IMG/VR virus record: IMGVR_UViG_3300035686_000079
Source: an uncultured virus (IMG/VR IMGVR_UViG_3300035686_000079)
Taxonomy: Duplodnaviria; Heunggongvirae; Uroviricota; Caudoviricetes
Reading direction: 5' to 3' (one strand)
DNA: 33,177 nt
The notes beneath the pieces are model-generated. The model searched no databases. It saw nothing but the letters and a program-made list of their open reading frames with translations, and was not told where the DNA came from. Each line of letters starts with the position of its first letter. Positions within the stretch are counted from its first letter, which is position 1. Positions 15,665 through 32,815 of this stretch are shown here, piece after piece. Position numbers and translations under genes: made by a program.

Positions 15665-17290
15665 TTAAAGACTTTTGCCAAAAGCCCTAAATACACCATG
15701 TTCTTTTAGTTCTTGAGGCAACAACAAGCCTTTAGACACCAAAAACAACACTCCATCTTTATCTGGTAACTTTGAGTTTTCTAGCTCTTCTGCAAGGTCT
15801 TTGAAAGCTGTATCTAAATCTTTGCCATTATCTAGTCCTTTTTTTATCTCTTGTTGAGCTACTTTCTCCAAATCAATCTTCTTATAAATCTCTTCCAGAA
15901 ACTGCTGAGTGTCAAACCTAAAATCCAAAGATTCCTCAGCGATTTTTAGGTTTTTTTCTAACATTTCATCTAATTCACCTTTCAAGAAAATTGAACCTAT
16001 TTTTCTTAGGACATTCTCTGATTCATCTGAGTTTTTTAAAGTCAAAACAATTGAGTTTCTTATTTTTCTGCCTCTGAAATCTATCCTTCCAGAATGCAAA
16101 GCAGTAATTTTAAGTTTTATTTGATTAGCTGCTTTTTGAATCACTAAAGAAGGAGATCCAGTTGAATATATAAAGTTCCCTGCTTTGTCCTTGGGTTCTG
16201 TAATTGTTTCAAATGGAGACACATCACTCAATGAGATTCTTGGATGCTGTTCTTTGTTAATGACTTGACGCCATTGATAATCATAATCTCGTACTTTACC
16301 AGCTGTCATGACAGATATATTAGGTGGATCTATTTTTAATTTCTTACATACCTCCACAACACCTGAATCTGCGGCATCTTTTATGGTTTCATAAAATTGA
16401 TTGACTGCCATTTCAGTTGCTTTATTTACCGTTTTCTTACCTGTCTTTCCTGTTGCTTTAGCGGCAGCACTAACACCACTACCAACACCTATACCAATAG
16501 CCAAGTCAATTCCAAGTCTCACTAAAGGGTTTTTAACATCCATCTTGTCCATTGCCTTATTCGCGGCAAAACTCACCGCCTGAGTGGCAGCAGCAGAAAC
16601 AAGAATGGTGCCTAATGTGTCTCCCACCAGCATCCCGATAGCAATTTCCGGCGTGAGGGTAGCGGCAAGGTATCCGGCGATCGGAATAGAAGCTGCGGCA
16701 ATTTTCCCTAAAACTTTAATCCCTTCCGATTCACTCTCAACGTTGTTGAGGTCGTCAATTAGCTTGTTGTACTTGAATCCAGCTAATTCAAATGCTCTCT
16801 TAATATCCTTAGCAAGTTCTTTGGGGTCGCGCCCTTCCTGTAAGCCACTGATGCTGTTGACGATTTCCTTGAATGGGTCTGGTTTAATGGCGTTAGGAAG
16901 TCCGGGATTAATCTTGGCGTACTTATCTGCCAACCTGTCTCGTGCCGTCTGAGCGTCAATGCCGAACATTTTGTTGAGCAGTTTGTCGGCAAACTCAGGA
17001 TTCTTCTCAACGAGCTTGTCTAGTCCCTTGGCTGTGAGTTTAAGCAGTTCGTTATTAACTTTACGCTTGGCTTCCTTGGGGTCTTTAATAGCCTCCTGGA
17101 TGGTCGCAGCCGCATCTTTGACTGACTCTGTGACGGAAGTTGCTTTCTTGGCAAACTGCCCTGTTGCACTATCTCGCATAACGGTCTTCTCCTCAGAGCC
17201 TTTACGCCAATCTGCCGCATACTCTTTGAGGGCTGCTTCTACGAAGATTCCACTGACTTGGGCTTGAGCTAGAGCATAATGATCTGTCAT
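15665..17290 (-). CDS. Leader-family effector A: conserved 275-aa N-terminus plus unknown AT-rich C-terminal domain
   Basis: Residues 1-275 are nearly identical to 19363..21552; the sequences diverge right after GIGVGSGVSA. Confidence 0.85.
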   Translation of the reverse strand: MTDHYALAQAQVSGIFVEAALKEYAADWRKGSEEKTVMRDSATGQFAKKATSVTESVKDAAATIQEAIKDPKEAKRKVNNELLKLTAKGLDKLVEKNPEFADKLLNKMFGIDAQTARDRLADKYAKINPGLPNAIKPDPFKEIVNSISGLQEGRDPKELAKDIKRAFELAGFKYNKLIDDLNNVESESEGIKVLGKIAAASIPIAGYLAATLTPEIAIGMLVGDTLGTILVSAAATQAVSFAANKAMDKMDVKNPLVRLGIDLAIGIGVGSGVSAAAKATGKTGKKTVNKATEMAVNQFYETIKDAADSGVVEVCKKLKIDPPNISVMTAGKVRDYDYQWRQVINKEQHPRISLSDVSPFETITEPKDKAGNFIYSTGSPSLVIQKAANQIKLKITALHSGRIDFRGRKIRNSIVLTLKNSDESENVLRKIGSIFLKGELDEMLEKNLKIAEESLDFRFDTQQFLEEIYKKIDLEKVAQQEIKKGLDNGKDLDTAFKDLAEELENSKLPDKDGVLFLVSKGLLLPQELKEHGVFRAFGKSL

Positions 17291-17302
17291 AAAAGCTCCA
17301 CG

Positions 17303-17325
17303 AACACCGTTCGACCGAACGTGTT
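17303..17325. promoter_or_regulatory. Conserved palindrome, copy 2 (imperfect)
   Basis: AACACCGTTCG-AC-CGAACG-TGTT with one G missing. It overlaps the stop of 17324..17710 and lies 12 bp upstream of the effector A start. Confidence 0.65.
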
Positions 17326-17710
17326 ATTTAATGATGAATGGCAAGATATCCAATTCTATACCCCCTAATTCCATCTTCACTGGTACTGGGTTTCCCTGTT
17401 TTGGGGCATTTTGCACTGTGTAACGTAAACCATACATAGGTGCCACTTGCTCTAATATATAAAGCAAATTATCCCAGTAGGTAGCTCCTCCCTGTACGGG
17501 CCAGTGTTCCAGGCTTTGACTGGTTACCATGGCATTCTTGAAATGGGCAAGCAAGGCATCAGACCCCTTGCGGATATCCTTGAAAACCACTAGCCCAGTG
17601 GTTCGGGAATCTTCTATTGAACTTCCTTCTGGGGGAAGCAATTCAATTTTCCAGAAAGGGAGCGTAACACGATCGGTCTTAAACTGAACTTCAACTACTG
17701 GATTTGGCAT
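17324..17710 (-). CDS. Small protein coupled to the peptidase effector; candidate immunity/inhibitor
   Basis: 1-bp TAATG overlap with 17710..19293. Shares FK..TS, PV and WDxLxxI with 25914..26270. Confidence 0.7.
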   Translation of the reverse strand: MPNPVVEVQFKTDRVTLPFWKIELLPPEGSSIEDSRTTGLVVFKDIRKGSDALLAHFKNAMVTSQSLEHWPVQGGATYWDNLLYILEQVAPMYGLRYTVQNAPKQGNPVPVKMELGGIELDILPFIIK

Positions 17711-19293
17711 TACCGTTTATTTGGTTTCATATCGGCTACAGAAAGAGCATATAGCATTGTCTCCCGATCCTTAGCAGCCATCCTGCCCGCAAGGCGAGAA
17801 CTACCTAATGACTCAAATCCACTAGACAGAACCTCAGTGCCAAGGTCTTGGCTGCCATCAGGCGATTTCATTCTTAGCCCTTGATAAGGGGAAAAGAAAC
17901 GATCTTCGGCTGCATCTCTACTTCCACCAACTTGACTCATTCCATAAGGAAGTTTTACTGCCTTGCCTTTTGGTGTTTCCGCCGCCCTATCTTCTCGGAG
18001 AGCAGCTGACATATCCACAAGATCGTATTTCATTTCTATCAGGTGTCCAGCCTCGTGAAAAGCGATTTCACGTAAGTGATCTTCTGTGTTACTAAGTTGC
18101 TCATACCCAGTAGTATTCAAGCCTGCCGCTTTTGAATTAACATCTCCAACGTTGATTATTCCATCCGAATTAAAAAAATCAAATAGTCTGTTTATTTGAT
18201 TATTATTGTACCTGTTCAATGTTTGACCACTTTTTGTTTTACTGCCTCCGATCGCAAATGCACGGTTGTTAGATACCGTTAATTTTATGTTTAGACTAGA
18301 GTTAATTAATTTTGATAAGCTTTTCAGTTCTTTAGCAGCTGCATCAATAATATTAAACCTCTCTTGGTAAGTCTTAAGACTCAATCCGCCCAAGCTTGAA
18401 AACATGGCAGCTAGCGCAGCAAAGTCTTTCGTAGAGCTTTGCGTTGTTTTTATTGTCCCTGGAGATTCCTTGGTTGCTGTTCTAAGGAGATTTTCATAAG
18501 CTACCTTTTGCTCGTCAGAACCTAGTTCTGCATTCGCAACGGCATCAATATTCGCATCGTATTTAATAGATGCCTTAACAACGCCTGCTCTCCATTGTGC
18601 CCTTGGAGAATCAGCGCCTTCTTTTTCAACAATCTCTGCAAGTTCATTCACTCGCTTACCCAAAGAAAAGCCTTCCCCTTTGTATTGAGCTATTAAAGAT
18701 TCACAATGCTCCTTCTCCTGTACCGCAGCAGCAGAAGCAATCATGTTATTTGACAATTCTTGTTCAAGGCTGACTAATTGTTCTCCGCCTTGAGAAACCT
18801 TAGCTGCTAGCTTGATAGCATTGATACTAGCCTTACTAGCAATCATGATTTGCTCTTTTCGTTTTGCTTCCAACTGCTTGATCGCTGCTTTTCGTGCTGG
18901 TGCATCTAATTGCCCCTCACCTATACGATCGCACTCCTTAATAAGTCCTTCAGTATCAATTCCGAACGCATCGAGCGCCCGTTGAACTTGAGCAGCTTTT
19001 TCTTGGGTGTTTTCTCCTGTTAAATTTAAACTCTTGGTGAGTCGATCTGTGTTGCTCTCTTTACTCGCTTCGCTGTCGGTAGCAGATTTACCTGGAGATT
19101 CACTCCCCGGTGCTGCTGTCGCAGCTGCTCCAGGACTGGCAAACTTGCCTCCTACTCGATAAACCTTCGTACTACTGCCCTCTCTCCAGTCGGCTTCATA
19201 CCACTTGCCTTCGGCTTCAATTTGGAGGCGATCGATCTCGAAACTGGCAATGGCTGCTTGAGCTTGAGCTATTAACAATAACTGGTTGTCCAT
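17710..19293 (-). CDS. Leader-family effector B: divergent leader plus HExxH zincin-like metallopeptidase domain
   Basis: Leader IAQAQ...YEADWREGS...RVGGKFAS. HEAGH at 18043-18057, followed by FSPYQG, TEVLS and DRETMLYALSV, which align with the two HELTH paralogues. Confidence 0.8.
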   Translation of the reverse strand: MDNQLLLIAQAQAAIASFEIDRLQIEAEGKWYEADWREGSSTKVYRVGGKFASPGAAATAAPGSESPGKSATDSEASKESNTDRLTKSLNLTGENTQEKAAQVQRALDAFGIDTEGLIKECDRIGEGQLDAPARKAAIKQLEAKRKEQIMIASKASINAIKLAAKVSQGGEQLVSLEQELSNNMIASAAAVQEKEHCESLIAQYKGEGFSLGKRVNELAEIVEKEGADSPRAQWRAGVVKASIKYDANIDAVANAELGSDEQKVAYENLLRTATKESPGTIKTTQSSTKDFAALAAMFSSLGGLSLKTYQERFNIIDAAAKELKSLSKLINSSLNIKLTVSNNRAFAIGGSKTKSGQTLNRYNNNQINRLFDFFNSDGIINVGDVNSKAAGLNTTGYEQLSNTEDHLREIAFHEAGHLIEMKYDLVDMSAALREDRAAETPKGKAVKLPYGMSQVGGSRDAAEDRFFSPYQGLRMKSPDGSQDLGTEVLSSGFESLGSSRLAGRMAAKDRETMLYALSVADMKPNKR

Positions 19294-19362
19294 ACATAAT
19301 TAAATATGTGATATCCACTAATTCTACTAGTCAGTTGAACAACGCTATTTTGGGAAATTTTT
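19294..19362. promoter_or_regulatory. Short AT-rich divergent intergenic region (probable promoters of both effector operons)
   Basis: 69 bp between divergently transcribed genes; no specific -10/-35 pair assigned. Confidence 0.4.
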
Positions 19363-21552
19363 GTGATTGACGAATATGCATTGGCTCAAGCCCAAATCAG
19401 TGGAATCTTTATAGAAGCTGCCCTCAAGGAATATGCGGCAGACTGGCGCGAAGGTTCTGAGAACAAAACCGTCGTGCGAGATAGTGCGACGGGTCAGTTT
19501 GCCAAGAAGGCTACTTCCGTGACGGAGTCAGTCAAAGATGCCGCCACGACTATCCAAGAGGCTATTAAAGACCCTAAGGAAGCTAAGCGTAAAGTCAATA
19601 GCGAACTACTTAAGCTCACAGCCAAGGGGTTGGATAAGTTAGTTGAGAAGAACCCGGAGTTTGCCGACGAACTGCTCAACAAAATGTTCGGCGTTGACGC
19701 CCAGACGGCACGAGACAGGTTGGCAGACAAATACGCCAAGGTTAATCCCGGACTTCCCAACGCCATCAAGCCAGACCCACTTAAGGAAATTGTCAATAGC
19801 ATCAGTGGCTTGCAGGAAGGGCGTGACCCCAAAGAACTTGCCAAGGACATTAAGAGGGCATTTGAATTAGCTGGATTCAAGTACAACAAGCTAATTGACG
19901 ACCTCAACAACGTTGAGAGTGAATCGGAAGGGATTAAAGTTTTAGGTAAAATTGCCGCAGCTTCTATCCCTATTGCTGGCTACCTTGCCGCTACCCTTAC
20001 GCCGGAAATTGCTATTGGGATGCTGGTGGGAGACACATTGGGCACTATCCTCGTCTCTGCTGCTGCCACTCAAGCGGTGAGTTTTGCCGCCAATAAGGCA
20101 ATGGACAAGATGGATGTCAAAAACCCTTGGGTAAGACTAGGTATTGATCTGGCTATTGGCATAGGTGTGGGTAGTGGCGTTAGTGCTGGAGCTAAGCAGC
20201 TTGAGAAAAAAGCTTTACTAAAGGCAGCTAAAGCTAAACAAGCAAAAGAACTTGCAGAAGCCGAAGCTAAGGCTGCCCAAAAACTACAAAGAAGGCAACA
20301 GCGCCTTAACAATATCAAAGATGAAAATGCTAAGCAAACCTTACAAATTGCTGAAGCACATATTACTACCAAAGAAGCAGATCTATATGACAAATTTGTG
20401 TCTATGGGCGTTGACTCTAAGTTACTAGATTCGGTTATAACTAAAACCCAGTCAATCATTGAAGAATCTAAGATTGCCATACGAGTTCCCGACTTAAATG
20501 TTTTTGATTTAATAAAAAACTCTAGGTTTAAAAGTACTTTTGAGACAGCTACTAGAGACAATGTAGATTACATGAGCTGGCGGAATGAAGTAGAAAAATT
20601 AGCCCTTGGAATAACAGAGGAGACTACAGAGGATGCCTCTCGACCGATTTATGGGTATGTAGTAGATGGCAAAGACCATGTAAGTGGAACCTATAAAGGC
20701 GAAGGCAAGGCAACTGATGGATACGGATTAATATCTGTAATCCTAAAAGATGATGTAAAAACATCAGCTTCTTTCAGCGCTACTGATTCATTCCAACGTC
20801 CAAATTCATCGTTAATGGAGAAGTCTGGCTTGGGTGCATTTTTCCAATATGAATCAGAAAATCTAGAGGTGATCAACGAAACACTAGAAAAAATCAGTAA
20901 AGCCGAAACAGTAGAAGATTTGGTTCAACTAGGCTCTATTGGCGTCAAAGACAAAAAACCTAGATATCTAGAGACACAAATATTCGGCAAGGTTAATGGT
21001 TCTGATATTGCCGAAGTCGTCATAAACGATAGGGTCTTTTCAAGAGGAGCCGATCCAGAGCTTGCAAAAAAACTATTTGGCTCGAACTCAGTAGCTGGTT
21101 TTGCAGAAGAATTAGAAAAAGAAGGAATAAAGGTTCACGTTCCTGAAGAAAGTTTAGAACTTAGATACGCCAAATCAAAAGGGGAAACGCCCACTCTAAA
21201 ATCAATGTCTAATATTGAAGATTATGACTATAACAATGGACGCATTGCAATGCAACAAAAACAAGTCCATGAAAACATGAAAATAACAGCAGAAGAAAAA
21301 CGACAGTACAAAACAAATTCTTTCATTTATTCAAGACATGCGATACTAGAAAGCGTAGCTCAAAACCTCAATGTTTTTCGGTATCTTGAACGTATAGATC
21401 AAACAAATATAGTTACAGGAGAGACAACTAGACTTTTCAGTCTAAAACCAGAATTTGACAAGGAAGTCCTTGATGCTATCGTGAAGCACGACCCTAACTT
21501 TTTCTCTGACTTTGAGAAAAGCTGGGGATTACCCATCGACTTAGGCTTATGA
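19363..21552 (+). CDS. Leader-family effector C: conserved N-terminus plus DUF3626-like domain
   Basis: GTG start. C-terminal motifs FKSTFET, RPIYG, YGxxxxxLK, SFSxxDS and YLETQIFG..D match, in order, the DUF3626 pattern as I recall it. Confidence 0.75.
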   Translation: MIDEYALAQAQISGIFIEAALKEYAADWREGSENKTVVRDSATGQFAKKATSVTESVKDAATTIQEAIKDPKEAKRKVNSELLKLTAKGLDKLVEKNPEFADELLNKMFGVDAQTARDRLADKYAKVNPGLPNAIKPDPLKEIVNSISGLQEGRDPKELAKDIKRAFELAGFKYNKLIDDLNNVESESEGIKVLGKIAAASIPIAGYLAATLTPEIAIGMLVGDTLGTILVSAAATQAVSFAANKAMDKMDVKNPWVRLGIDLAIGIGVGSGVSAGAKQLEKKALLKAAKAKQAKELAEAEAKAAQKLQRRQQRLNNIKDENAKQTLQIAEAHITTKEADLYDKFVSMGVDSKLLDSVITKTQSIIEESKIAIRVPDLNVFDLIKNSRFKSTFETATRDNVDYMSWRNEVEKLALGITEETTEDASRPIYGYVVDGKDHVSGTYKGEGKATDGYGLISVILKDDVKTSASFSATDSFQRPNSSLMEKSGLGAFFQYESENLEVINETLEKISKAETVEDLVQLGSIGVKDKKPRYLETQIFGKVNGSDIAEVVINDRVFSRGADPELAKKLFGSNSVAGFAEELEKEGIKVHVPEESLELRYAKSKGETPTLKSMSNIEDYDYNNGRIAMQQKQVHENMKITAEEKRQYKTNSFIYSRHAILESVAQNLNVFRYLERIDQTNIVTGETTRLFSLKPEFDKEVLDAIVKHDPNFFSDFEKSWGLPIDLGL

Positions 21553-21788
21553 AAAACATTAAACAAGAAGAGATAGGCAAAATTAACGGTATCAGAATTT
21601 TTGCTATTGGAGTATCTGAAGAGGCTAATGCAATTGGAAAAAAAGATATTTATGTTAACTGGTCATACGACTTAAACCAAGGAAAACCAAACCCAGACAA
21701 AGCTATTGAACTGAACTCTATTTTGAAAATGACTCAAATACAGTCCATTAAGCTGGATCAGGATATCATAAAACGATTGAGCAACTAG
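21549..21788 (+). CDS. Small protein coupled to effector C; candidate immunity protein
   Basis: 4-bp ATGA overlap, fills the gap to the next gene, AT-rich like the upstream C-terminal domain, and unrelated to the two peptidase-linked small genes. Confidence 0.7.
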   Translation: MKNIKQEEIGKINGIRIFAIGVSEEANAIGKKDIYVNWSYDLNQGKPNPDKAIELNSILKMTQIQSIKLDQDIIKRLSN

Positions 21789-21793
21789 TTCTC

Positions 21794-23725
21794 ATGGTTG
21801 ACGAATACGCCCTAGCTCAAGCCCAAATCAGTGGCATCTTCGTTGAAGCCGCACTCAAGGAGTATGTAGCGGATTGGCGCAAAGGCTCTGAGGACAAAAC
21901 CGTTATGCGAGATTCGGCAACGGGGCAATTTGCTAAAAAGGCAAGCCGATCGCCAACACAAAGCGAAGACACCTCGGAAAATCCTCTTTCAAACGCCCTA
22001 TCTGTCCTCCGTCAGCCAGCCAAAGCAAAAGAACACGCCCTTGCCCTCCTGGATGACGTAAAGAAGGGAGTCGATCGCATCAAAACGGCAAAACCAGAAG
22101 ACTTAGCCAAAGTTGCCAAACAAATCATGAAAGATGGCGTACCAGCTGCCATCTACTTGGCACAAACGTTCGGACCCGATGTAATCATCGGCTTATCGCT
22201 AGGGGAATCCCTCCCCATCATCCTGGGGGGAGCCGCCGTCTACTTAGCCGTCTCCAAGGTAGCCGAGAAGATGCTGGAAGAGTCTGAGTTTGACAACCCG
22301 TGGATAAAAGCAGGAGTCAACCTCGCCGTCTCCTTGGTCACAGCCGATTTAGCCAAAGGGATTTTAACGGCGACCAAGGCAGCCAAGTTTAACGCCCAAG
22401 GAGTTTACAAAATCGTACAGGCTGGCAAGACGGCGGATGACCTAAAGGCAACAGTCAAAACCGTCACTCAGCAAGTCGATAAGATGGCGACTCCAGCCAA
22501 AAATTTGCTCGAACAGCAACGGCGCGATCGATTCCTGCATTCTTTAACTTTAACCGCTGAAACTAGTAAAGATAACACGACAAAAAACTTATTTAAAAAT
22601 TTAGCAGACTATTGTTCGGGTAAACTTAGTAGTCCCAGTGAAAACTTAACCCGCTACGTAGAGAAAGAAATCAGCGGATTGAGGCAGTCTTTAAAGGGGA
22701 CAAGTGTCGATGTCGATGGTTTAGCCGATCGTTTAGCTCAAATGTCAGATTTAACTAACACACCATTGTTGCTTCGCAATCGCCGCATTGATGATGTAAA
22801 AAATATAGTTCAACGAGCAAAAGAGATTCCTCAAGCAGCTAAAGATATCGACGGAATCGCTCACAAAGCAGTTATAAAACAGGTAGATGACCTCCGTAAA
22901 AAATTTGCACAACAGATTAAAAATGGAGTCCCGTATGAGACTATACTGCGAGATCCGGAATTGATTAACTCCTCCCTATTGGTTGATAAAGCCAATGCAA
23001 TTGAATTTGGTAATGAATGGCGATCAATGTTGGTTAACACGGAGATTAAGTACGGCAAACAACTTGATGAATTCCTGGACTCAGTAACGAAGAATCCTAA
23101 AGATATAGGCGATCGTTACGAGGTATTTTTGGGCAACCTTGTTAAAGACAAGCCTCAAAACGTGAAGATAGGTAGAGCAGCGGATTATGACTTCTTAAGG
23201 AACAAGCCATACGGAGTGAAGGATCGGGACAAGTACCTTTATCAGCCGTGGGCTGATAAAGGTACACGGGACATGATTGCAGATGAATGCCAAAAAGCTG
23301 CCGAGCTATTCGGTCGATTATCTCCTGTTCAACTGGATGTGAGAATCGGTTCTCATGGGCCAAGAGCTTACCAGATCGGCAATATCATTAATGTTTCTAC
23401 TGGGGACTTTACTCACACTTGGCATGAGCTTACTCATGTTCTTGAGCGAACAATGGATAAGGGATTTGAGCTTTCTTCTGCATTTCGAGGTGCTAGAACT
23501 ACAGGCAGAGAGCTGAAAGACATGGCACACTTAGGTATGCCTGGAGAAAAAGCCGTTGTTGACAGGTTCCTCAATACTTATACAGGTAAAGTTTACACTG
23601 GAAATTCAACTGAAATTCTTACTACTGCTGCCGAGAAAATGGCAACAGCAGAAGGATTACACCATCTTGCCACGCTAGATCGGGAACAGCTAATGTTTTT
23701 TTTATCAGTCCTCGATCGGGGTTAA
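21794..23725 (+). CDS. Leader-family effector D: leader, divergent hydrophobic block, HExxH zincin-like peptidase
   Basis: First ~50 aa match the family leader. HELTH at 23423-23437, then YTGKVY, TEILT and DREQLMFFLSV. Confidence 0.85.
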   Translation: MVDEYALAQAQISGIFVEAALKEYVADWRKGSEDKTVMRDSATGQFAKKASRSPTQSEDTSENPLSNALSVLRQPAKAKEHALALLDDVKKGVDRIKTAKPEDLAKVAKQIMKDGVPAAIYLAQTFGPDVIIGLSLGESLPIILGGAAVYLAVSKVAEKMLEESEFDNPWIKAGVNLAVSLVTADLAKGILTATKAAKFNAQGVYKIVQAGKTADDLKATVKTVTQQVDKMATPAKNLLEQQRRDRFLHSLTLTAETSKDNTTKNLFKNLADYCSGKLSSPSENLTRYVEKEISGLRQSLKGTSVDVDGLADRLAQMSDLTNTPLLLRNRRIDDVKNIVQRAKEIPQAAKDIDGIAHKAVIKQVDDLRKKFAQQIKNGVPYETILRDPELINSSLLVDKANAIEFGNEWRSMLVNTEIKYGKQLDEFLDSVTKNPKDIGDRYEVFLGNLVKDKPQNVKIGRAADYDFLRNKPYGVKDRDKYLYQPWADKGTRDMIADECQKAAELFGRLSPVQLDVRIGSHGPRAYQIGNIINVSTGDFTHTWHELTHVLERTMDKGFELSSAFRGARTTGRELKDMAHLGMPGEKAVVDRFLNTYTGKVYTGNSTEILTTAAEKMATAEGLHHLATLDREQLMFFLSVLDRG

Positions 23726-23728
23726 GCC

Positions 23729-25921
23729 ATGGACGAATATGCTCTAGCTCAGGCTCAACTAAGTGGACTATTCATTGAAGCTGCACTTAAAGAATATGCA
23801 GCAGATTGGCGTGAGGGTTCCGAAAACAAAACCGTCACGCGAGATTCAGCAACGGGTCAGTTTGCTAAGAAAGCTACTTCCATCACAGAATCAGTCAAAG
23901 ATGCTGCTGCGACCATCCAAGAAGCACTGAAAGACCCCAAAGAAGCCAAGCGTAAAGTCAATAGCGAGTTACTCAAACTCACGGCGAAGGGACTGGATAA
24001 ATTAGTTGAGAAGAACCCGGAGTTTGCCGACGAACTGCTCGATAGGATGTTCGGTGTCGATGCTCAGACGGCACGGGACAAATTAGCGGACAAGTATGGA
24101 GAAATAAATCCGGGATTGCCGAATGCCATCAGACCAGAGCCGCTGGAGGATGCCGTTACTGGCATGGGCGCACTATTAAGAATGAAAGCGAAACTTCGCC
24201 ACCCCAAACAGATAGCCAGCGGACTCAAGAAGGCATTTGAGGTTGCTGGCTACCAGTACAACAAACTAATCGACGCTCTCAACAACATTGAGAGCGAGTC
24301 TGAAGGAATTAAACTACTAGGAAAAATCGCCGCAACGTCCATCCCGATCGCCACCTATCTAGCTGCAACTCTTACGCCAGAGATTGCCATTGGGATGTTA
24401 GTAGGGGATACGTTGGCAACGATTCTTGCTTCTGCTGCGGTTACTCAAGCAGCGAGCTTTGCCGCCAACAAGGCAATGGACAAAATGGATGTCAAAAACC
24501 CAGTATTGCGCTTGGGGATAGACCTGGCTATTGCCATTGGTGTTGGCAGTGGGTTCTCTGTTGCCCCAAAAAAAATTAGAAGCTTGAAATTGTCGAATAC
24601 CAACGTTGCCAAGATTGCACAGGCAGGCAAAACAGCCGATGATTTGAAATCAACAGCTAAGGCTGTCACGCAAGAAGTTGAGAAGATGAAAAATCCAGCC
24701 AAAAGTCTTCTCGAACAACAGCGGCGCGATCGCTTCCTTCACTCTCTGTCTTTGACGGCTGAAAAAACCACAGACAAGGTATCCAAAGGCTTTTTTGCAA
24801 ACCTATCCGATTATTGCGCCCTCAAGCTGAAACCAACTGAGGATTTAACGAGCTACGTCGAGAAGGAGTTGCGCGGCATGAGGACATTACTAAAGGATAC
24901 TGATATTGATGTCGAAGCACTTACCTCTAGGCTTGCTCAAATGTCAGACTTAAGTAATGTTCCCTTATTGCAGCACCAGCACCGCATCAAAGATGTTAAG
25001 AAATTAGTTCAACGAGTCAAGGAAATCCCTCAAGCGGCTAAGAACGCTAGTAGCAACAAAGGCAGCGTACTTAAACAGCAGGCGTCCGACTTATTTAAAG
25101 AAACAGCAAAACGACAGAATGAGGGACTGCCTTTTGAAGAGGCAATGTCTATTAAGAGAAACAATTATACCTTGCTAGACAAAGCACACGCACTGGAACA
25201 AGGCGATCGAGTGCGAACGATGTTATTGAATGCAGAAATCAAGTATGGCAAACAACTAGATGATTTTTTGGGTTCTGTGACTAGCAACACAAAAACAATA
25301 AATAAACGTTACGAGGCTTTCTTGGGAAGTTTAGTCAGGGATAAGCCCAAAAACGTGGCGATATCTAAGGCTACAGATGAAGACTTTATCGATTACTTCA
25401 ACGCAGTAAAGCTAACTGGAGAATGGCGTCGTCCATGGGCGAGTAAAGCAAACAGAGACAAGGTTGTTAGTGAATCTCAAAAAGTAATAGAACTCTTCAG
25501 TCGTTTCTCGCCTGTTGATTTGAATATTAAAATCGGCTCTTACGGAAGCCGAGCGTATGTAGCTGGAACAGGTAGTCAACTGGTTAATCTTGCAGATGGT
25601 AACACACGCACTGTTTGGCATGAACTAACTCATATGGTGGAGGAGTCTATCAAAGGAGGGTTTGAACTATCTTCCGCTTTTCGGGGTATTAGGACTATTC
25701 AGTCGGGACTCGATGATCTGGCTCGATTGGGTATGCCAGGAGAAAAAGTTATTTTTGATTCGTTTATCAATCCTTATGCAGGAAAAGTTTATCCGTCTAA
25801 TTCAAGTGAGATTTTGACAATGGCTGGTGAAAATCTTGCGTCAGCAGAAAGCTTGCATCGGTTTGCTACGCTAGATCGAGAGCATTTAATGTTTTACTTA
25901 TCCGTTATAGATCGTGGCTAG
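23729..25921 (+). CDS. Leader-family effector E: A/C-type N-terminus fused to a D-type peptidase C-terminus
   Basis: Residues 1-277 resemble effectors A and C; from KIAQAGKTADDLK onward it resembles D. HELTH at 25619-25633. Confidence 0.85.
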   Translation: MDEYALAQAQLSGLFIEAALKEYAADWREGSENKTVTRDSATGQFAKKATSITESVKDAAATIQEALKDPKEAKRKVNSELLKLTAKGLDKLVEKNPEFADELLDRMFGVDAQTARDKLADKYGEINPGLPNAIRPEPLEDAVTGMGALLRMKAKLRHPKQIASGLKKAFEVAGYQYNKLIDALNNIESESEGIKLLGKIAATSIPIATYLAATLTPEIAIGMLVGDTLATILASAAVTQAASFAANKAMDKMDVKNPVLRLGIDLAIAIGVGSGFSVAPKKIRSLKLSNTNVAKIAQAGKTADDLKSTAKAVTQEVEKMKNPAKSLLEQQRRDRFLHSLSLTAEKTTDKVSKGFFANLSDYCALKLKPTEDLTSYVEKELRGMRTLLKDTDIDVEALTSRLAQMSDLSNVPLLQHQHRIKDVKKLVQRVKEIPQAAKNASSNKGSVLKQQASDLFKETAKRQNEGLPFEEAMSIKRNNYTLLDKAHALEQGDRVRTMLLNAEIKYGKQLDDFLGSVTSNTKTINKRYEAFLGSLVRDKPKNVAISKATDEDFIDYFNAVKLTGEWRRPWASKANRDKVVSESQKVIELFSRFSPVDLNIKIGSYGSRAYVAGTGSQLVNLADGNTRTVWHELTHMVEESIKGGFELSSAFRGIRTIQSGLDDLARLGMPGEKVIFDSFINPYAGKVYPSNSSEILTMAGENLASAESLHRFATLDREHLMFYLSVIDRG

Positions 25922-26270
25922 TTTCAAGATATTTTTAGGTGAAAGTTTCTGCTGTCAAGTGTCCCTAACTGGGGATATTCGCAAGTCTTCTGATGTTGGC
26001 GCGATCGTCATCCAGGTAGAAAATACGATCGCCTTCGAGCTATTCAAATCCTTGTTTCTCACTTCCCGCTTCCGAGTTGTTGGAGCACCAGTAGAGCGAG
26101 AAAAAGACTGGGGGATGTGTGACTGGGATGATTTGAAAAGCATATTTGATGAATTTCCTTCTCCTTGGTCGTATCAGATCGATGGGAAGGTGAAATCGGA
26201 TGTGTTCGTCTGGGCTGACAACATGAGTACTACACCAAGCATTCTGGATCACCGTTCGATCGAACGGTGA
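25914..26270 (+). CDS. Small protein coupled to the peptidase effector; candidate immunity/inhibitor
   Basis: GTG start overlapping effector E by 8 bp; weak motif similarity to 17324..17710. Confidence 0.7.
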   Translation: MASFKIFLGESFCCQVSLTGDIRKSSDVGAIVIQVENTIAFELFKSLFLTSRFRVVGAPVEREKDWGMCDWDDLKSIFDEFPSPWSYQIDGKVKSDVFVWADNMSTTPSILDHRSIER

Positions 26271-26272
26271 TC
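26247..26272. promoter_or_regulatory. Conserved palindrome, copy 3 (perfect, 26 bp)
   Basis: GATCACCGTTCGATCGAACGGTGATC, overlapping the stop codon of 25914..26270. Confidence 0.75.
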
Positions 26273-26274
26273 AC

Positions 26275-26321
26275 AAAAAAAGCCAGCCACTAATGTCCTG
26301 GCCGGAACATTAGTGGCTGGC
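26275..26321 (-). terminator. Intrinsic terminator for the leftward three-gene operon
   Basis: 15-bp stem GCCAGCCACTAATGT (26282-26296) / ACATTAGTGGCTGGC (26307-26321). A7 on the left gives a U-tract on the minus strand, just past the stop at 26327. Confidence 0.85.
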
Positions 26322-26326
26322 GGGTA

Positions 26327-27049
26327 TTAGGCAGTCTTGACTGCTAGATTTAAGTAGCAATCTTTGATTTTGCGTGTTAGCGTTATGCGCTTAACACCAG
26401 GCTGTCTGTGATTTTCGATTTTGGCGTTGAACTTTTTGTTCAACATATCGATGTGGTTCTGTAGGTCTTCTATGGACCACAGTTTGGGGTTATTGAGTTC
26501 GCTGAGGTCTTGCATAAGACCCTTGTACTCGTTCTTCTCTTCGATGGGCTTGATTTCGACAAGTTCGAGAATTGGTTTTTGTTGTTCTTTGGGTTTCTGA
26601 GTGCTTGTCCATACTTGGAGTACTACCCGGATTGGGTAGGTCAGTACGAACAGTACGTATGTGGCGATTAAGCACCAGCCTAAGAAGGCTGATATCATTA
26701 ACGCACCGAAGTGGCTCGTTACGAGTAGCGCCAGTCTTGCGACTAACAGTACTGGTGTCGTTACTAACCTGAAGGCAGTAACGACGGCTTGGAAGCCTGT
26801 TATCGCGATCGCACCAGCTATTGCTAGTACGGTTGATGCGACTTCTACCACACCTCTCCAGCAGGCTTGAACTGCATTATCGGTGTAGCTTTTCATTTTC
26901 TGGTTTACTTCTGTTACCGACTTAACGGTATCTTCAGCAAGGTCGCTTGCTGAATCTTGGAATTTTCCAGGGTTGCAGCAGGTTGCGATGATGTTTCTGA
27001 TGAACTTAAACATGTGTTTGTGTGTTGTAATGTTGGTTAGTAATTTCAT
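26327..27049 (-). CDS. Membrane protein with C-terminal Rho-N/HeH-like domain
   Basis: Long hydrophobic central region; C-terminus LNNPKLWSIEDLQ...KIKDCY aligns with the neighbouring gene. The start may be the ATG at 27013. Confidence 0.6.
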   Translation of the reverse strand: MKLLTNITTHKHMFKFIRNIIATCCNPGKFQDSASDLAEDTVKSVTEVNQKMKSYTDNAVQACWRGVVEVASTVLAIAGAIAITGFQAVVTAFRLVTTPVLLVARLALLVTSHFGALMISAFLGWCLIATYVLFVLTYPIRVVLQVWTSTQKPKEQQKPILELVEIKPIEEKNEYKGLMQDLSELNNPKLWSIEDLQNHIDMLNKKFNAKIENHRQPGVKRITLTRKIKDCYLNLAVKTA

Positions 27050-27052
27050 CGG

Positions 27053-27075
27053 AGGGGCAGCTTTGAGTTGCCCCT
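27053..27075. terminator. Intergenic stem-loop (attenuator or mRNA-stability hairpin)
   Basis: AGGGGCAGCT-TTG-AGTTGCCCCT; no U-tract in the sense (minus) direction. Confidence 0.4.
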
Positions 27076-27085
27076 GTTTCTTGTC

Positions 27086-27667
27086 TTAGACGACCGCGTA
27101 AAATTCTTTGATGAGCTTCACTATCAGTCGTCTGTTGGTGTTCTTTCGACAGTGACCCTCTATCAGCCTTTGGCTGGAGGGATTGAAACTTAGTTCGATT
27201 GAATTAAGCTCTCGGCAGAACTGTTGTAGCTTTCTCACTGACCAAGCCTTCTTATCATTCAGATTGTCTGGGCAGGGTGGGAATGGCGTTTTGGTAATCA
27301 CCTCTGTATCGAGGGAACGCTGCACTTCCACCGTGATTGGAGTCTCTGATGCAGGAAGCTGGGGTAAGGGTAAGCTTAGTAAGATTTCCTGTTGCCATGT
27401 TCTTCGGGGAGAACAACTGGCTTCATAGTCTTTTTGGATTTGCCGCCAGAGAGCGTCAAATATCTCGTTCTGGCTGTTATCCTGCACTTGAACTGTCTCA
27501 GGTGAGACAATCTCAAGCTTGGGTGCGGGAGCGGCGACAACTTCTGGCTTTTCAGCTAACAGAGCAGCGGCGGCTCTACCGCAGGCTATAGGTATAGTGA
27601 TTAGCACTTTACCTACATTTATTAGCCTCTTAGCGAGGCATTTCAGGCATTTAAGCAATTGCTTCAT
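27086..27667 (-). CDS. Hypothetical protein with C-terminal Rho-N/HeH-like domain
   Basis: C-terminus LNDKKAWSVRKLQQFCRELN...IEGH..RRLIVKLIKEFY; overlaps the upstream gene by 17 bp. Confidence 0.6.
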   Translation of the reverse strand: MKQLLKCLKCLAKRLINVGKVLITIPIACGRAAAALLAEKPEVVAAPAPKLEIVSPETVQVQDNSQNEIFDALWRQIQKDYEASCSPRRTWQQEILLSLPLPQLPASETPITVEVQRSLDTEVITKTPFPPCPDNLNDKKAWSVRKLQQFCRELNSIELSFNPSSQRLIEGHCRKNTNRRLIVKLIKEFYAVV

Positions 27668-28028
27668 TGTTCTCTCCGAATACTAGATTTAGTAGAGTGT
27701 TGAACGCGATCGCAAGGGCTAAGCCCTTGACTAAACAGGTCGCTAGCAGTATCATTAACGCGATTGCACTACTGATACTGATCGTTAGCAAGGTGAGTAG
27801 CTGCGGGTTGAACAGTAGAACGAACCCTAAAAAGAGCAGGTAGTCATCTTGCGACCAGCTGGAAAACCAGCTAAGAACTTCTTTAGCAGCCGCCTCGATG
27901 GGAATCGAGACTTCTTGAATCACTGTCGAAGCGACTTGAGTGACTGACTCTCTCACCGGAGTTATATGGGCGAGGGCAGTACGCAAAGTTGCAGCGACGT
28001 TGTTGAACAAACGCTTAAAGAATTGCAT
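27651..28028 (-). CDS. Small membrane protein, unknown function
   Basis: AAGGA ribosome-binding site upstream, amphipathic N-terminus, strongly hydrophobic C-terminal half. Confidence 0.7.
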   Translation of the reverse strand: MQFFKRLFNNVAATLRTALAHITPVRESVTQVASTVIQEVSIPIEAAAKEVLSWFSSWSQDDYLLFLGFVLLFNPQLLTLLTISISSAIALMILLATCLVKGLALAIAFNTLLNLVFGENNEAIA

Positions 28029-28237
28029 TGTTTATCCTTAAATAGTTGAATTTGTGTTGGAAGAATGTATTTGTAGAGTTATTTATTCTTCCATTACATA
28101 CTAATATAACACATATTGTATTAAATTGCTAATAAAATCACGTATTTCGCTCAAAAAACCTGATTTTTGACGTTTTTTTTTGCCAAAAATCACGAATAAA
28201 TTCGATAAAGTACAATAAATATTAATATTTTTGCTAT

Positions 28238-28257
28238 CACCGTTCGATCGAACGGTG
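28238..28257. promoter_or_regulatory. Conserved palindrome, copy 4 (perfect, 20 bp)
   Basis: CACCGTTCGATCGAACGGTG, 7 bp upstream of the ATG at 28265. Confidence 0.75.
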
Positions 28258-28264
28258 TTTTTAG

Positions 28265-29083
28265 ATGTTAGACCCGTATTTATTGGCTCAAGCACAGGTT
28301 ACAGGCTGCACGATACAAACATTATTAGCCGAAGCAGAAGTTAAGGAATATAAAGAGGATTGGCGGAAGACACCTATTTATCGTCAAGGAGGGAAATTTG
28401 CCTCCAACGATAAATCTTCTGAAGGTTCTACAGCGGAAAAGTCAGATTCAGGTAGCGCCGCTTCAAAAATGAAAGATATTGCCGATCGCACCCTCACCCC
28501 ATTAGCGAACAAAATTCAGCAGGGAGTTAAAAAAATCCCTTCAGAAACTCAGCAAAAACTAGCAGAAGCGGCGAATAATCCTGATGTTAAGAAGGCAAAA
28601 GAGGCGATCGGAGAGGCATTCCACGAATTTGACGTTGAGGCGGGGGAAGCCTTTGACAAGGTAGCTAATGCCATACAGAAAGGGCAGGAAGAAGAGCCGG
28701 AAAAACCCATAGAGTCTGGAGTGGACAAGGGAGTCAAAAAAGCCAAGCAGATCCTAGACATTGCGGCCAAAAATCCCGGACATGCCGCATTGGGCGCACT
28801 AGGAGGACTTCTCATGTGGAGCGGTGGACTTAATCAATTACAGGGAACTTTAGGATTAGCTTCATCTGCTCTTTCAGCTAATCCTCTTGCTGCTACGACT
28901 GGGCTAGCTGCCCTCGGTGTTGGAACGGGTGAAGTAGTGATAGGAAAAATGCTTTGGGATATAGGTTCTAAACCATTTACCAAAGAGATGCAGAAAGAGC
29001 AAAAGGAGGAGGTGAAAACACTGTCTGGGAAAATTGAAAAAGTTGTTTCTGGTCTACAAGCAAAAGTCCCCAAAGACAAATAA
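28265..29083 (+). CDS. Leader-family protein F: leader, charged helices, Gly/Ala-rich hydrophobic hairpin
   Basis: MLDPYLLAQAQVTG...KEYKEDWRK...RQGGKFAS leader; later AALGALGGLLMWSGG...LAALGVGTG with small-xxx-small spacing. Confidence 0.8.
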   Translation: MLDPYLLAQAQVTGCTIQTLLAEAEVKEYKEDWRKTPIYRQGGKFASNDKSSEGSTAEKSDSGSAASKMKDIADRTLTPLANKIQQGVKKIPSETQQKLAEAANNPDVKKAKEAIGEAFHEFDVEAGEAFDKVANAIQKGQEEEPEKPIESGVDKGVKKAKQILDIAAKNPGHAALGALGGLLMWSGGLNQLQGTLGLASSALSANPLAATTGLAALGVGTGEVVIGKMLWDIGSKPFTKEMQKEQKEEVKTLSGKIEKVVSGLQAKVPKDK

Positions 29084-29117: not shown

Positions 29118-30734
29118 TTAACTAACGTAAAACATATAGCGGTACAGCGCTGGTTGCGCTGTCAAAGCTTGGCTAATTCTGTGACCAAGCCATTTAGACC
29201 TCTCTGTTAAGTTTTCAAGAGTTCTGATGTCGGTTTTATAGACATCGGGATCGGACTTATCCGCTTTGTCTACAATTTTTTCAAGTTCGTTCCTGAGCGA
29301 TTGCAACATCGCCAACGCGGCAAACTTGTCATCACACAAGTCGTCGTTGTCGGACTCAAATGCACAGATGCGCATGAGTTGAGATTCCAATTCAGAAAGT
29401 GCTGCATGAAGGTTGACGCAATCGTCAACCAATGTAATTTGCAGGATTTCTTCCTCACTGGAGATATCCCAGTTTTCCTTGATCGCATTTAGGTAAGCTT
29501 GGCGATCGTCTATAGGAATTCTCTCCTGTAACACTGAAACTTCCTCACGAGTTACTTCCAGTGTTGAATAATCCTCATTTTGCTCATGAAGGCAAACATC
29601 AGATTCAGGGATGAAGTATTGGTTCGCGATCATCCCCCAAAGTTCAGCACTTTGAGAAACGGATTCTTGCTCTAAGCCGAGAATCCTCAGGAAACTAGCA
29701 TTGGACTCAATGATTAATTGAGGAATGCGATAGTTGGTCACGGCGACCAGGCTAATAATCTGGTCTTTTGGATAATCTTTGATAGCGTTTAGCAACTGAA
29801 TGCCGCAGACCATCACGGAGGTACGAGCGTCTTCTACAGAGGCTTTGCTGAAACAATGTTGCCCTGCAATGCCCTCTACAATCAAACCAGCTAGTTTTTT
29901 GCGCTTGTCGATATCGCAAGCGACAAAATTAACCAGGTTTGCTGTTGGTTCTTCCAAGGCAGACTCCCCGGTGATACTTGAGATTTTCGCCACCTTCTTA
30001 ACGGCGGCTCGCAGCTCCTTCACCTTCATAGAGGTTCTGGGGAGGTAATAATCCCCAAACGCGCTACTACTTGGGTAACGGGAATCATCCCAAGAGATAC
30101 ATACGGTCAGGTCTTTAGCCTGAACGTGAACGGCTTTGTCGGAGCAGCTCAAGAAGATTTGAATGTATTTGAAATCCTCTTCATTCAGCAAATCTATTAG
30201 CTGAACCGGAAGTGAGAATTCACAATCGTATCTAATCTCGCTTACTGCACTAAAACCGCAGCAAGTCTCCATAGTTGAAGAACGAGCTGAAACTGTAGCA
30301 ATTTTACTGTTGGCACCACCTGATATAAACACCTTTGCATTTTCAGTGTGCCGAACGGTATTTGCAATTGAATCGATCGTCTGCAAAAAGATTCCACCAT
30401 CGATAGTGAAATAGAAATCCCAGTTGGGTGAAGTCCTAGCCATTTTAAGCTGTTGCCACTCCGCAGGGTATTGTATTTCATCATCGCTATCGAACCAATG
30501 ATCTGGAAACTTGGATAAATTATCGATGTCGTCCCATAGATTAAAGTCAGAAGCATTAATTAATGCTCCACAATAATCATTGGAGTCATCGACCTCAATC
30601 TTCCTTGTAATAGCCATCCCGTACTGGAGGTACGAGACAAACACAAAATTTGCACATCGCTCCAGTTTGATTGGAGTGATGCCATTGTTTTTCTGTGCGC
30701 TAGCAAGAATTTGAGACAAGTAATTTAATGACAT
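29118..30734 (-). CDS. Hypothetical protein; possible divergent beta sliding-clamp-like central region, acidic helical C-terminus
   Basis: Long ORF. The FSLP..L, YP...YYLP, ELRAAVKKV and LLNAIK segments follow the order of DnaN domain 2-3 motifs, but similarity is weak. Confidence 0.4.
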   Translation of the reverse strand: MSLNYLSQILASAQKNNGITPIKLERCANFVFVSYLQYGMAITRKIEVDDSNDYCGALINASDFNLWDDIDNLSKFPDHWFDSDDEIQYPAEWQQLKMARTSPNWDFYFTIDGGIFLQTIDSIANTVRHTENAKVFISGGANSKIATVSARSSTMETCCGFSAVSEIRYDCEFSLPVQLIDLLNEEDFKYIQIFLSCSDKAVHVQAKDLTVCISWDDSRYPSSSAFGDYYLPRTSMKVKELRAAVKKVAKISSITGESALEEPTANLVNFVACDIDKRKKLAGLIVEGIAGQHCFSKASVEDARTSVMVCGIQLLNAIKDYPKDQIISLVAVTNYRIPQLIIESNASFLRILGLEQESVSQSAELWGMIANQYFIPESDVCLHEQNEDYSTLEVTREEVSVLQERIPIDDRQAYLNAIKENWDISSEEEILQITLVDDCVNLHAALSELESQLMRICAFESDNDDLCDDKFAALAMLQSLRNELEKIVDKADKSDPDVYKTDIRTLENLTERSKWLGHRISQALTAQPALYRYMFYVS

Positions 30735-32350: not shown

Positions 32351-32815
32351 ATGAGTAGAATAATTGGCACGATCGCACAACTTCAAGGGGAACTGACTGC
32401 GATCGCGATCGAACTGGTTGCCGCATCAGTTTATGAAAAAATTGACTTCACTCCACCTGAAGGAGCAAAGAAAGCGGCTGAGCGGGGGATGGAATTGCGA
32501 TCGAAGTTTGGGAGAGGTGGGATGTCCGAGTCAGAAGCTGGCGACCAAGGAATTTGGTCGGGAGTCAAGACAGCTCGGGCATTGAGGAGTGGTAAAGCTA
32601 TTTCTCCCGAACTTGTACGACGAATGAATCGCTACTTTACCCGCCATCAGAAGGACAAGGACGCCAAGGGAAGCGATTCTGCGGGTTATTGGGGAAACCC
32701 AAGCAACCCTTCTGCTGGCTATATTGCATGGCTATTGTGGGGAGGCGATGCCGCGAACTCTTGGTCTGGGAAAGTTATAAGGCAGATGGAATCGGCGGAG
32801 GAAAAGGCAGGGTAA
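32351..32815 (+). CDS. Phage head-associated AWxLWGG-domain protein, possibly with a degenerate family leader
   Basis: PP..A..RG..R..GRGG...RM..YF.RH...GYIAWLLWGG is a pattern I recognise from unannotated phage head-region proteins. The gene is divergent from the portal. Confidence 0.7.
   Translation: MSRIIGTIAQLQGELTAIAIELVAASVYEKIDFTPPEGAKKAAERGMELRSKFGRGGMSESEAGDQGIWSGVKTARALRSGKAISPELVRRMNRYFTRHQKDKDAKGSDSAGYWGNPSNPSAGYIAWLLWGGDAANSWSGKVIRQMESAEEKAG

Follow-up and report, generated by a model that had tools for sequence, protein, structure and literature searches.

The leader genes and their common N-terminus

The 33,177-nucleotide (nt) stretch of DNA analysed here, referred to as the window throughout and belonging to a 179.9-kb contig, comes from an uncultured virus of the Caudoviricetes (IMG/VR record IMGVR_UViG_3300035686_000079) and contains, at positions 15665 to 29083, an array of six genes, g1 to g6, whose products start with a common leader and end in different C-terminal regions. 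An earlier note had pointed out these six genes as well as three small open reading frames (ORFs) overlapping the ends of leader genes, and both observations were confirmed, the former by the ORF coordinates and an alignment of the leaders, the latter by overlaps of 1 nt (s1/g2), 4 nt (s3/g3) and 8 nt (s5/g5). Judged by their sequences, g1 to g6 represent an undescribed phage protein family that combines an invariant leader, usually a linker and hydrophobic segments, and an exchangeable C-terminal domain. The array comprises the following features (protein lengths in amino acids, aa):

15665-17290, minus strand: g1, 541 aa; leader (nt 17111-17290), linker, hydrophobic module (nt 16460-16714) and a C-terminal region of ~260 aa without family
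16458-17294, no strand: first arm of an inverted repeat, 837 nt, matching 19359-20195 at 89%; corresponds to the N-terminal module common to g1 and g3
17324-17710, minus strand: s1, small ORF of 128 aa, overlapping the end of g2 by 1 nt; placed in the small partner family
17710-19293, minus strand: g2, 527 aa; leader (nt 19114-19293), no hydrophobic segment, C-terminal HExxHxxE (motif nt 18034-18057)
19363-21552, plus strand: g3, 729 aa; leader (19363-19542), hydrophobic module (19939-20193), coiled-coil and a C-terminal domain of 400 aa, possibly DUF3626/SopF-like
21549-21788, plus strand: s3, small ORF of 79 aa, overlapping the end of g3 by 4 nt; no family matched
21794-23725, plus strand: g4, 643 aa; leader (21794-21973), short linker, hydrophobic module (22169-22267), helical region and HExxHxxE (23423-23446)
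23729-25921, plus strand: g5, 730 aa; leader (23729-23908), long linker of the g1/g3 type, hydrophobic module (24347-24568) and HExxHxxE (25619-25642)
25914-26270, plus strand: s5, small ORF of 118 aa, overlapping the end of g5 by 8 nt; putative conserved partner of the HExxH domain
28265-29083, plus strand: g6, 272 aa; leader (28265-28444), helical region and one weak hydrophobic segment (28886-28942), no enzyme domain, the minimal form

In an alignment of the first 60-67 residues of g1 to g6, 15 columns are invariant (D3, L7, A8, Q9, A10, E18, A19, K22, Y24, D27, W28, R29, G44, F46 and A47), and the leaders of the other five proteins are 88, 41, 75, 92 and 41% identical to that of g3. The pattern starts with a helix, ..LAQAQ........EA..KEY.ADW, which is followed by a short variable stretch and then by V.RD..G.FA.K. 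The shared N-terminus is longer than the ~50 aa assumed at first, as it covers ~60 residues in all six proteins and ~280 residues in g1, g3 and g5, where the leader is continued by a helical linker and two or three Gly/Ala-rich hydrophobic segments. Of 279 residues, 263 are the same in g1 and g3, while of the next 51 only 6 are, and at the DNA level their shared module forms the 837-nt inverted repeat, which stops at the module boundary; this sharp edge is a signature of domain swapping by recombination. The linker of g4 is shorter than those of g1, g3 and g5. Hydrophobic segments are present in five of the six leader genes, with g2 as the exception, and a weak match of the hydrophobic module to phrog_342, 'internal virion protein' (expectation value (E) 1.4e-4), suggests that the module inserts into a membrane after ejection.

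A search with a profile of the six leaders, which the earlier note had proposed as a way to further C-terminal variants, was carried out in a library of 1.84 billion representative proteins and did yield such variants. The profile recovered the window's own clusters at E values from 8e-30 to 4e-18, which in a library of this size places the leader similarity far beyond chance. In total, 24 proteins gave a match at E ≤ 1e-3; in 22 proteins it starts at residue 25 or earlier, and the remaining two, P0016 and P0030, are internal-repeat proteins that were dropped as spurious. The same motif runs through a MAFFT alignment of 30 leaders. Twenty relatives were scanned against Pfam at E ≤ 0.01, four of which contain a domain above the cut-off, namely DnaJ (P0012), TPR (P0022, P0029) and GNAT (P0007, where it is inserted ahead of the HExxH domain). 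A thioesterase/lipase-like match in P0014 falls just under the cut-off, ten relatives have no Pfam family at all, and the remainder show sub-threshold matches only. P0024 weakly matches the NAD-arginine ADP-ribosyltransferase Vis (E 0.003) and has, by eye, an R...STT...ExE spacing that we take to be the ADP-ribosyltransferase motif. The C-terminal types of the window also occur elsewhere: g2 has a homolog in P0011, short g6-like forms are found in P0017, P0025, P0031 and L005:7064-7975, the single ortholog of g3, P0032, is likewise leader-bearing, and the g4/g5-type HExxH protein gives nine matches, five of them outside relatives and four the window's own. When the C-terminus of g3 was searched among shorter proteins, none was found. 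A conserved N-terminal module with exchanged C-terminal domains, the general hallmark of polymorphic toxins, is therefore seen both in the window and in its relatives.

The leader itself did not match any family in the Pfam, PHROG, PADLOC or PDB-sequence libraries, and searches of a limited literature collection returned no description of the leader family. Neither tblastn with the N-terminal 290 aa nor megablast with the array gave a match among phage records (50,697 records in the case of tblastn). The leader, the HExxH family and P0014 were without match in viral_contigs, as was the HExxH family in genome_contigs. PDB sequence searches with alignments A3 and A6 and with g1, g2 and g3 gave nothing at E < 0.05, and PADLOC detected no defence family among the window proteins.

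C-terminal domains and small ORFs

An HExxH motif had been noticed in three of the genes and was found in all of them in the extended form HExxHxxE, at residues 413-420 of g2, 544-551 of g4 and 631-638 of g5. The three domains are homologous to each other (alignment A5), the C-terminal 435 aa of g2 also align to L003:9974-12322 (E 2e-29), and across ten aligned HExxH sequences H544, E545, H548, E551, E607 and E614 (g4 numbering) are invariant. An AlphaFold model of g4 has a mean predicted local distance difference test score (pLDDT) of 66.9, with values of 80-90 over most of residues 290-643. It contains, in this order, a helix (489-509), three strands (514-519, 526-528 and 531-533), the HExxH helix (539-553) and a later helix (607-616), so that the HExxH motif lies on one helix and the downstream Glu on a later one, as in zincins. 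The zincin-like core, as outlined in the available text of PMC5512222, consists of an N-terminal helix, a three-stranded sheet and two C-terminal helices, and the same text mentions, among 12 metallopeptidase clades, one of phage type with an acidic residue three positions after HExxH (Iyer et al. 2017), a feature shared by the HExxHxxE motif of the window. The order of helices and strands in the g4 model matches that outline, and the domain is predicted to be a zincin-like metallopeptidase.

Among the 50,697 phage records, tblastn with the HExxH domain detected only the Planktothrix phage PaV-LD, in two records of this same phage. Its ORF081R matches the domain with 35% identity (E 2e-5), and ORF080R is homologous as well. 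ORF081R is annotated as 'virion structural protein' and is located between the head and tape-measure genes of PaV-LD. Structural proteins of this phage are said to have been identified by gel and mass spectrometry. The label of ORF081R is repeated in a part of another paper (PMC10343443). PaV-LD has a paralog array of its own, comprising ORF078R, 079R, 080R, 081R, 083R and 085R (L002 6611-14675), with shared N-terminal modules and alternative C-termini. These C-termini carry either HExxH (two genes) or a YRG...SW...E.EV domain, which is presumably ADP-ribosyltransferase- or MuF-like if the motif is any guide.

The number of four C-terminal types given in the earlier note roughly stands, and its term 'DUF3626-like' for g3 can be taken as a lead only, coming as it does from ESM-Atlas features, with no Pfam match at E ≤ 10. 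These features connect the g3 C-terminus with DUF3626 clusters (score 0.92, 177 shared features, 26 of 30 matches), and DUF3626 is, according to the section of PMC6682159 at hand, a domain of the Salmonella effector SopF. PF12294 (DUF3626) itself was not matched by g3 or by P0032 at E ≤ 10, a profile search of the PDB gave no match for g3, and a fold prediction of the C-terminus from a two-sequence alignment (mean pLDDT 37) was unusable. The g3 C-terminal domain is possibly DUF3626/SopF-like; SopF has ADP-ribosyltransferase activity. For the C-terminus of g1 no match was obtained in Pfam, PDB or ESM-Atlas.

Three of the six leader genes have no small ORF of their own. Of the three small ORFs present, s5 is 67% identical to a 117-aa ORF overlapping the HExxH gene of L001, and in L003 a 105-aa ORF resembling s1 comes after the g2-like gene. 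s1 and s5 gave no BLASTP alignment with each other and are linked only by profile comparison and by a four-way alignment: hhalign of the s1 pair against the s5 pair resulted in a probability of 22% and an E value of 1e-3, with a shared FK..f.tS...P...G..WD.L motif, and the four sequences align collinearly with ten invariant columns (alignment A10). With moderate confidence we place s1 and s5 in a single family of partners of the HExxH domain, on the strength of these alignments. The conservation of s5 (67%) exceeds that of the HExxH domain preceding it (47-55%), so a dedicated inhibitor or chaperone fits better than a fast-evolving immunity protein. A complex prediction with residues 480-730 of g5 (8-row alignment) and s5 (2-row alignment) gave no answer, with 0.00 in both runs, and speaks neither for nor against binding. 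s3 matched no family in Pfam, PHROG or PADLOC, and s1 and s5 are not similar to the small ORF082R of PaV-LD.

Genomic context in the window and in related phages

The flanks of the array are those described before, a tape-measure-like gene on the left (tape-measure PHROGs, E 7.5e-21) and a portal gene on the right (PF04860, E 1e-16):

3-15656, plus strand: giant ORF, left flank, open at its 5' end, at least 5217 aa, the last third tape-measure-like
26327-28028, minus strand: three genes of hydrophobic proteins within the array (240, 193 and 125 aa), no family; membership in the system uncertain
29118-30734, minus strand: 538-aa gene directly downstream of the portal gene, the usual position of a MuF gene; no family, no leader
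30801-32306, minus strand: portal gene, right flank (PF04860, E 1.1e-16; phrog_2662, E 8e-23)

The phages of loci L001, L003 and L005 are related to that of the window, as their portals are 34-49% identical to the window's (L001 49%, L005 34%) and there is homology between the tape-measure C-termini. On the 2.2-kb metagenome contig L001 the order is HExxH gene, overlapping 117-aa ORF, portal gene. The 62.5-kb IMG/VR record G001, which includes both L003 and L005, has seven leader matches. In L005 a portal gene, a 564-aa gene, a gene with a weak major-head-protein match and a 154-aa gene are followed by an array of five leader genes, and the two further leader genes of G001 stand on either side of a tail module that contains a gp19-like tube gene, close to a tape-measure gene. 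A gp19-like tube gene, an adaptor gene and a tape-measure gene are also flanked by leader genes in L003 and L004. Two further IMG/VR records contain two and three leader genes, respectively, and one of these two is classed as a provirus. In every locus seen (five loci of four related records) the leader family lies within a morphogenetic gene block.

The statement that the array lacks a recognisable MuF domain held, as neither PF04233 nor PF06152 was detected at E ≤ 0.1 in the 16 window proteins; PF04233 is also absent from three related viral contigs, which are fragments. The position of a MuF gene downstream of the portal gene is occupied by the leaderless 538-aa ORF, and the HExxH gene of L001 lies upstream of the portal gene.

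Some observations on the relatives and on the remaining sequence are added here. A 775-aa protein in the middle of the array of relatives (L005:9577-11904, L006:1033-3360) is weakly similar to the linker and hydrophobic region (E 2e-5) and has no leader match. P0033, which bears the leader, was considered as a tape measure and rejected, its match lying in helical repeats and a stronger tape-measure gene being present on the same contig. In the window, the last third of the giant ORF matches tape-measure PHROGs such as phrog_4200 (E 7.5e-21), and the ORF contains many hydrophobic stretches as well as at least six copies of an (A/L)LNHG(S/A)AD.TA.AW or LNHSPTEKIP.AW motif; should it truly be a tape measure, its length would be exceptional. 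The portal-downstream genes of the window (538 aa) and of L005 (564 aa, L005:3631-5325) have no detectable similarity and neither has a family, although one would expect a protease or scaffold here. A prohead protease was not identified among the window proteins, and PF04586 is absent from the relatives. The 240-, 193- and 125-aa hydrophobic proteins matched no family in Pfam, PHROG or PADLOC, the first two having in common, by eye, a C-terminal K.WS...LQ....LN stretch. Beyond the portal gene, a 154-aa ORF (32351-32815, plus strand) matches the middle of phrog_2859, a family of unknown function (E 5.7e-14), and the adjoining partial ORF gives a weak ribbon-helix-helix match.

Between the genes, a perfect 20-nt palindrome (CACCGTTCGATCGAACGGTG) at 28238-28257, followed by a T-run, precedes the g6 start by 7 nt, a related TCGAACGGTGTT element is located just upstream of g1 (17303-17314), and a third copy is found at 7155 within the giant ORF. 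The element upstream of g6 and g1 may be regulatory or a terminator. GC-rich strong hairpins at 26271-26326, between the convergent s5 and 240-aa genes, and at 27050-27085, after the 240-aa gene, are likely terminators. Two DNA runs from biocrust metagenomes were found to contain the window, and no RNA run is listed for it. Short-sided contig joints in biocrust run X1 (17321/28237 and 26278/28238) coincide with the repeated palindrome sites; contig joints were dropped as evidence of cassette exchange, the pieces being fragmentary and a second biocrust run leaving parts uncovered (e.g. 15701-16834).

Interpretation and alternatives

We give about an even chance to the reading that the leader proteins are head-packaged, delivered effectors with a new loading and membrane-insertion module, their packaging being inferred from context. 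By binding a conserved assembly component, the leader would act as an incorporation signal through which the proteins are loaded into the particle, most likely into the head interior because the array of a relative follows the capsid gene. They would leave the particle together with the DNA, the hydrophobic module would insert into the host membrane, and the C-terminal domain would act on host targets. The cargo would include the zincin-like metallopeptidase, present here in three copies, and a possible SopF/DUF3626-like domain, and elsewhere in the family ADP-ribosyltransferase-like, J-domain, TPR, lipase-like hydrolase and GNAT domains. The small ORFs after the HExxH genes might encode a cognate partner, be it an inhibitor or a chaperone, handling the peptidase in the producing cell. 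A virion-loading signal appears to be the best explanation because the tag is strictly N-terminal on unrelated bodies, the genes form arrays, they stand in a head/tail context and they share a domain with an annotated virion protein.

More tentatively, leader and hydrophobic module could together amount to a self-contained delivery cassette not recognised before, used by a clade of long-tailed phages, each phage injecting up to seven exchangeable enzymes and adaptors that manipulate the host (zincin peptidase, ADP-ribosyltransferases, J-domain, TPR and lipase). It is likewise conceivable, though doubtful, that in such a cassette the tag loads whatever domain is attached to it, and that glycine-zipper segments bring this domain into or through the host membrane during infection. 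The giant tape-measure-like protein (at least 5217 aa) may also contribute to this route of delivery.

Several points weigh against packaging and delivery. The evidence for family members in virions is indirect throughout, and the position in structural modules is only suggestive since phage morons also sit there; one related record being classed as a provirus, there is also room for a role that benefits the lysogen. C-termini such as TPR and J-domain would equally suit proteins that work inside the infected cell. For the leader no binding partner was identified, and in the g4 model it is predicted at low confidence (pLDDT 30-44). As g2 lacks hydrophobic segments, membrane insertion cannot be universal. 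PaV-LD and the window share the C-terminal domain only and not the leader (hhalign probability 0.3%), and the 'virion structural protein' label of ORF081R was not traced to an experimental basis. A Foldseek search of the PDB recovered no solved zincin (0 matches at E ≤ 1e-3); the matches of the VIA wide search were all helical hairpins over residues 73-200 (best Z 8.3), and the best match in BFVD was a 364-aa viral protein (E 2.1e-3). Since the whole 643-residue g4 model was the query, the HExxH domain was barely tested by the fold search.

The closest analogues of the proposed mechanism are the T4 internal proteins IPI-III and Alt with their capsid targeting sequence (CTS), the likeness being a shared N-terminal sequence on diverse proteins. 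The CTS has about 10 residues and is cleaved by the prohead protease, whereas the conserved part here comprises 60 residues and, in most of the proteins, ~220 more with hydrophobic segments, the CTS being compared by description. A portion of PMC3012670 characterises the T4 internal proteins as a diverse set that has only this conserved N-terminal sequence in common, enters the head by means of it and is injected along with the DNA. Polyvalent proteins, as presented in the available text of PMC5512222 (Iyer et al. 2017), likewise contain HExxH zincin-like, ADP-ribosyltransferase and other effector domains and are predicted to be packaged and injected, but combine them in one giant polypeptide, in contrast to one effector domain per protein across a paralog array with a common leader. 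The ejection proteins of podoviruses (T7 gp14-16, P22 gp7/16/20) are head-packaged and resemble the leader proteins in their membrane-inserting segments and, for some, enzymatic domains, but they are single-copy, essential channel components without a shared leader, and the tape measure of the window phage implies a long tail. The PaV-LD array (ORF078R-085R) resembles that of the window in its homologous HExxH domain and as a paralog array in the structural module with alternative C-termini, two tandem HExxH genes being followed by one small ORF, yet its N-terminal modules, MKLxIAQTLS...GRFKD and a Cys-rich QCVKPT.YNCG..CI, are not homologous to the leader (hhalign probability 0.3%).

Alternatively, the leader proteins might be non-virion, membrane-anchored proteins of the infected or lysogenic cell that serve in host takeover, superinfection exclusion or lysis control, which we consider unlikely; a shared oligomerisation or regulatory domain, the role the leader would then have, is given the same small chance. 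Hydrophobic segments in five of the six genes and three more membrane-protein genes within the array would suit such proteins, TPR, DnaJ and GNAT make good intracellular modulators, the relatives include one record classed as a provirus, and the packaging of leader proteins is itself deduced. On the other hand, the genes are consistently embedded in head and tail modules (five loci of four related records), the HExxH domain is homologous to an annotated virion structural protein, and the strong conservation of the leader on unrelated bodies resembles that of targeting signals such as the T4 CTS, as far as the latter is described in the available part of PMC3012670.

Somewhat less probable still is that the leader docks to the tail-assembly machinery or the tape measure and that the proteins travel in or with the lumen of the tail tube instead of the head. 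The array of the window abuts the end of the giant tape-measure-like gene, in L003 and L004 a gp19-like tube gene and a head-tail adaptor gene have leader genes on both sides, a tape-measure PHROG is matched by P0033 (E 9e-5) and by its homolog in L006 (E 1e-10), and tape measures likewise carry hydrophobic segments. There is also a precedent in the payloads of extracellular contractile injection systems (eCIS) such as the Photorhabdus virulence cassette (PVC), where, according to the accessible text of PMC11495950, N-terminal signal peptides mediate loading into the tube and a leader of ~50 residues on unrelated effectors serves to load a phage-tail-like particle. However, eCIS are tail-only particles, with loci for sheath, tube and baseplate but without capsid genes, that need the AAA+ ATPase Pvc15, whereas the window phage has a portal, a relative has a weakly matching capsid gene, and no Pvc15-like AAA+ loader is found among the 16 window proteins. 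Moreover, the largest array (L005) directly follows portal and capsid genes, the tape-measure match of P0033 in helical repeats may reflect composition, and the bona fide tape measure on the P0033 contig has no leader match, its N-terminus being covered only by the whole-record profile search.

MuF toxins (Jamet et al. 2017, PMC5576092) are also phage-encoded, combine a conserved, virion-associated N-terminal module with variable metallopeptidase or ADP-ribosyltransferase C-termini, are often followed by a small ORF and are located in the packaging/head module, but the leader proteins differ in lacking MuF1/MuF2, in not being encoded directly downstream of the portal gene, in having up to seven paralogs per genome as opposed to one, and in their hydrophobic segments and non-toxin C-termini (DnaJ, TPR). 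A classical, MuF-like polymorphic toxin/immunity system of a temperate phage, with C-termini directed against competitors and small ORFs protecting the lysogen, is in our view improbable: the conserved N-terminus with variable C-terminus, the overlapping small ORF after three of the six genes and the one provirus among the relatives would fit it, but there is no MuF domain and the genes are not immediately downstream of the portal gene, the other three genes lack such an ORF, the small ORFs that follow the two HExxH subtypes appear to form a single conserved family rather than a hypervariable one, and DnaJ and TPR are among the C-termini of the family. Of the effector/immunity array that the earlier note had seen here, the conserved N-terminus with swapped C-termini stands, and its toxin and immunity framing is weakened because the domains found above the cut-off, DnaJ, TPR and GNAT, are effector-like rather than toxic.

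Polymorphic effectors delivered by phages are an established concept, exemplified by MuF toxins, polyvalent proteins and T4 internal proteins; new here are the proposed delivery module, the hydrophobic segment and the multi-gene arrays, as variants of this known concept. Proteins that phages inject include the T4 internal proteins and Alt, the Dar proteins of P1, the virion RNA polymerase of N4 and MuF toxins, and few of the signals that load proteins into phages have been defined, most of them in enterobacterial models. The leader family would add a strongly conserved loading tag from uncultured phages of a biocrust metagenome and IMG/VR, one that carries an unusually broad set of cargo domains in multi-gene arrays. 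The HExxH 'virion structural protein' of PaV-LD is linked to a wider family of putative effector domains with a conserved small partner. If packaging is confirmed, the leader would provide a simple sequence rule to find injected effectors in metagenomic phages and a candidate tag to load foreign proteins into phage particles.

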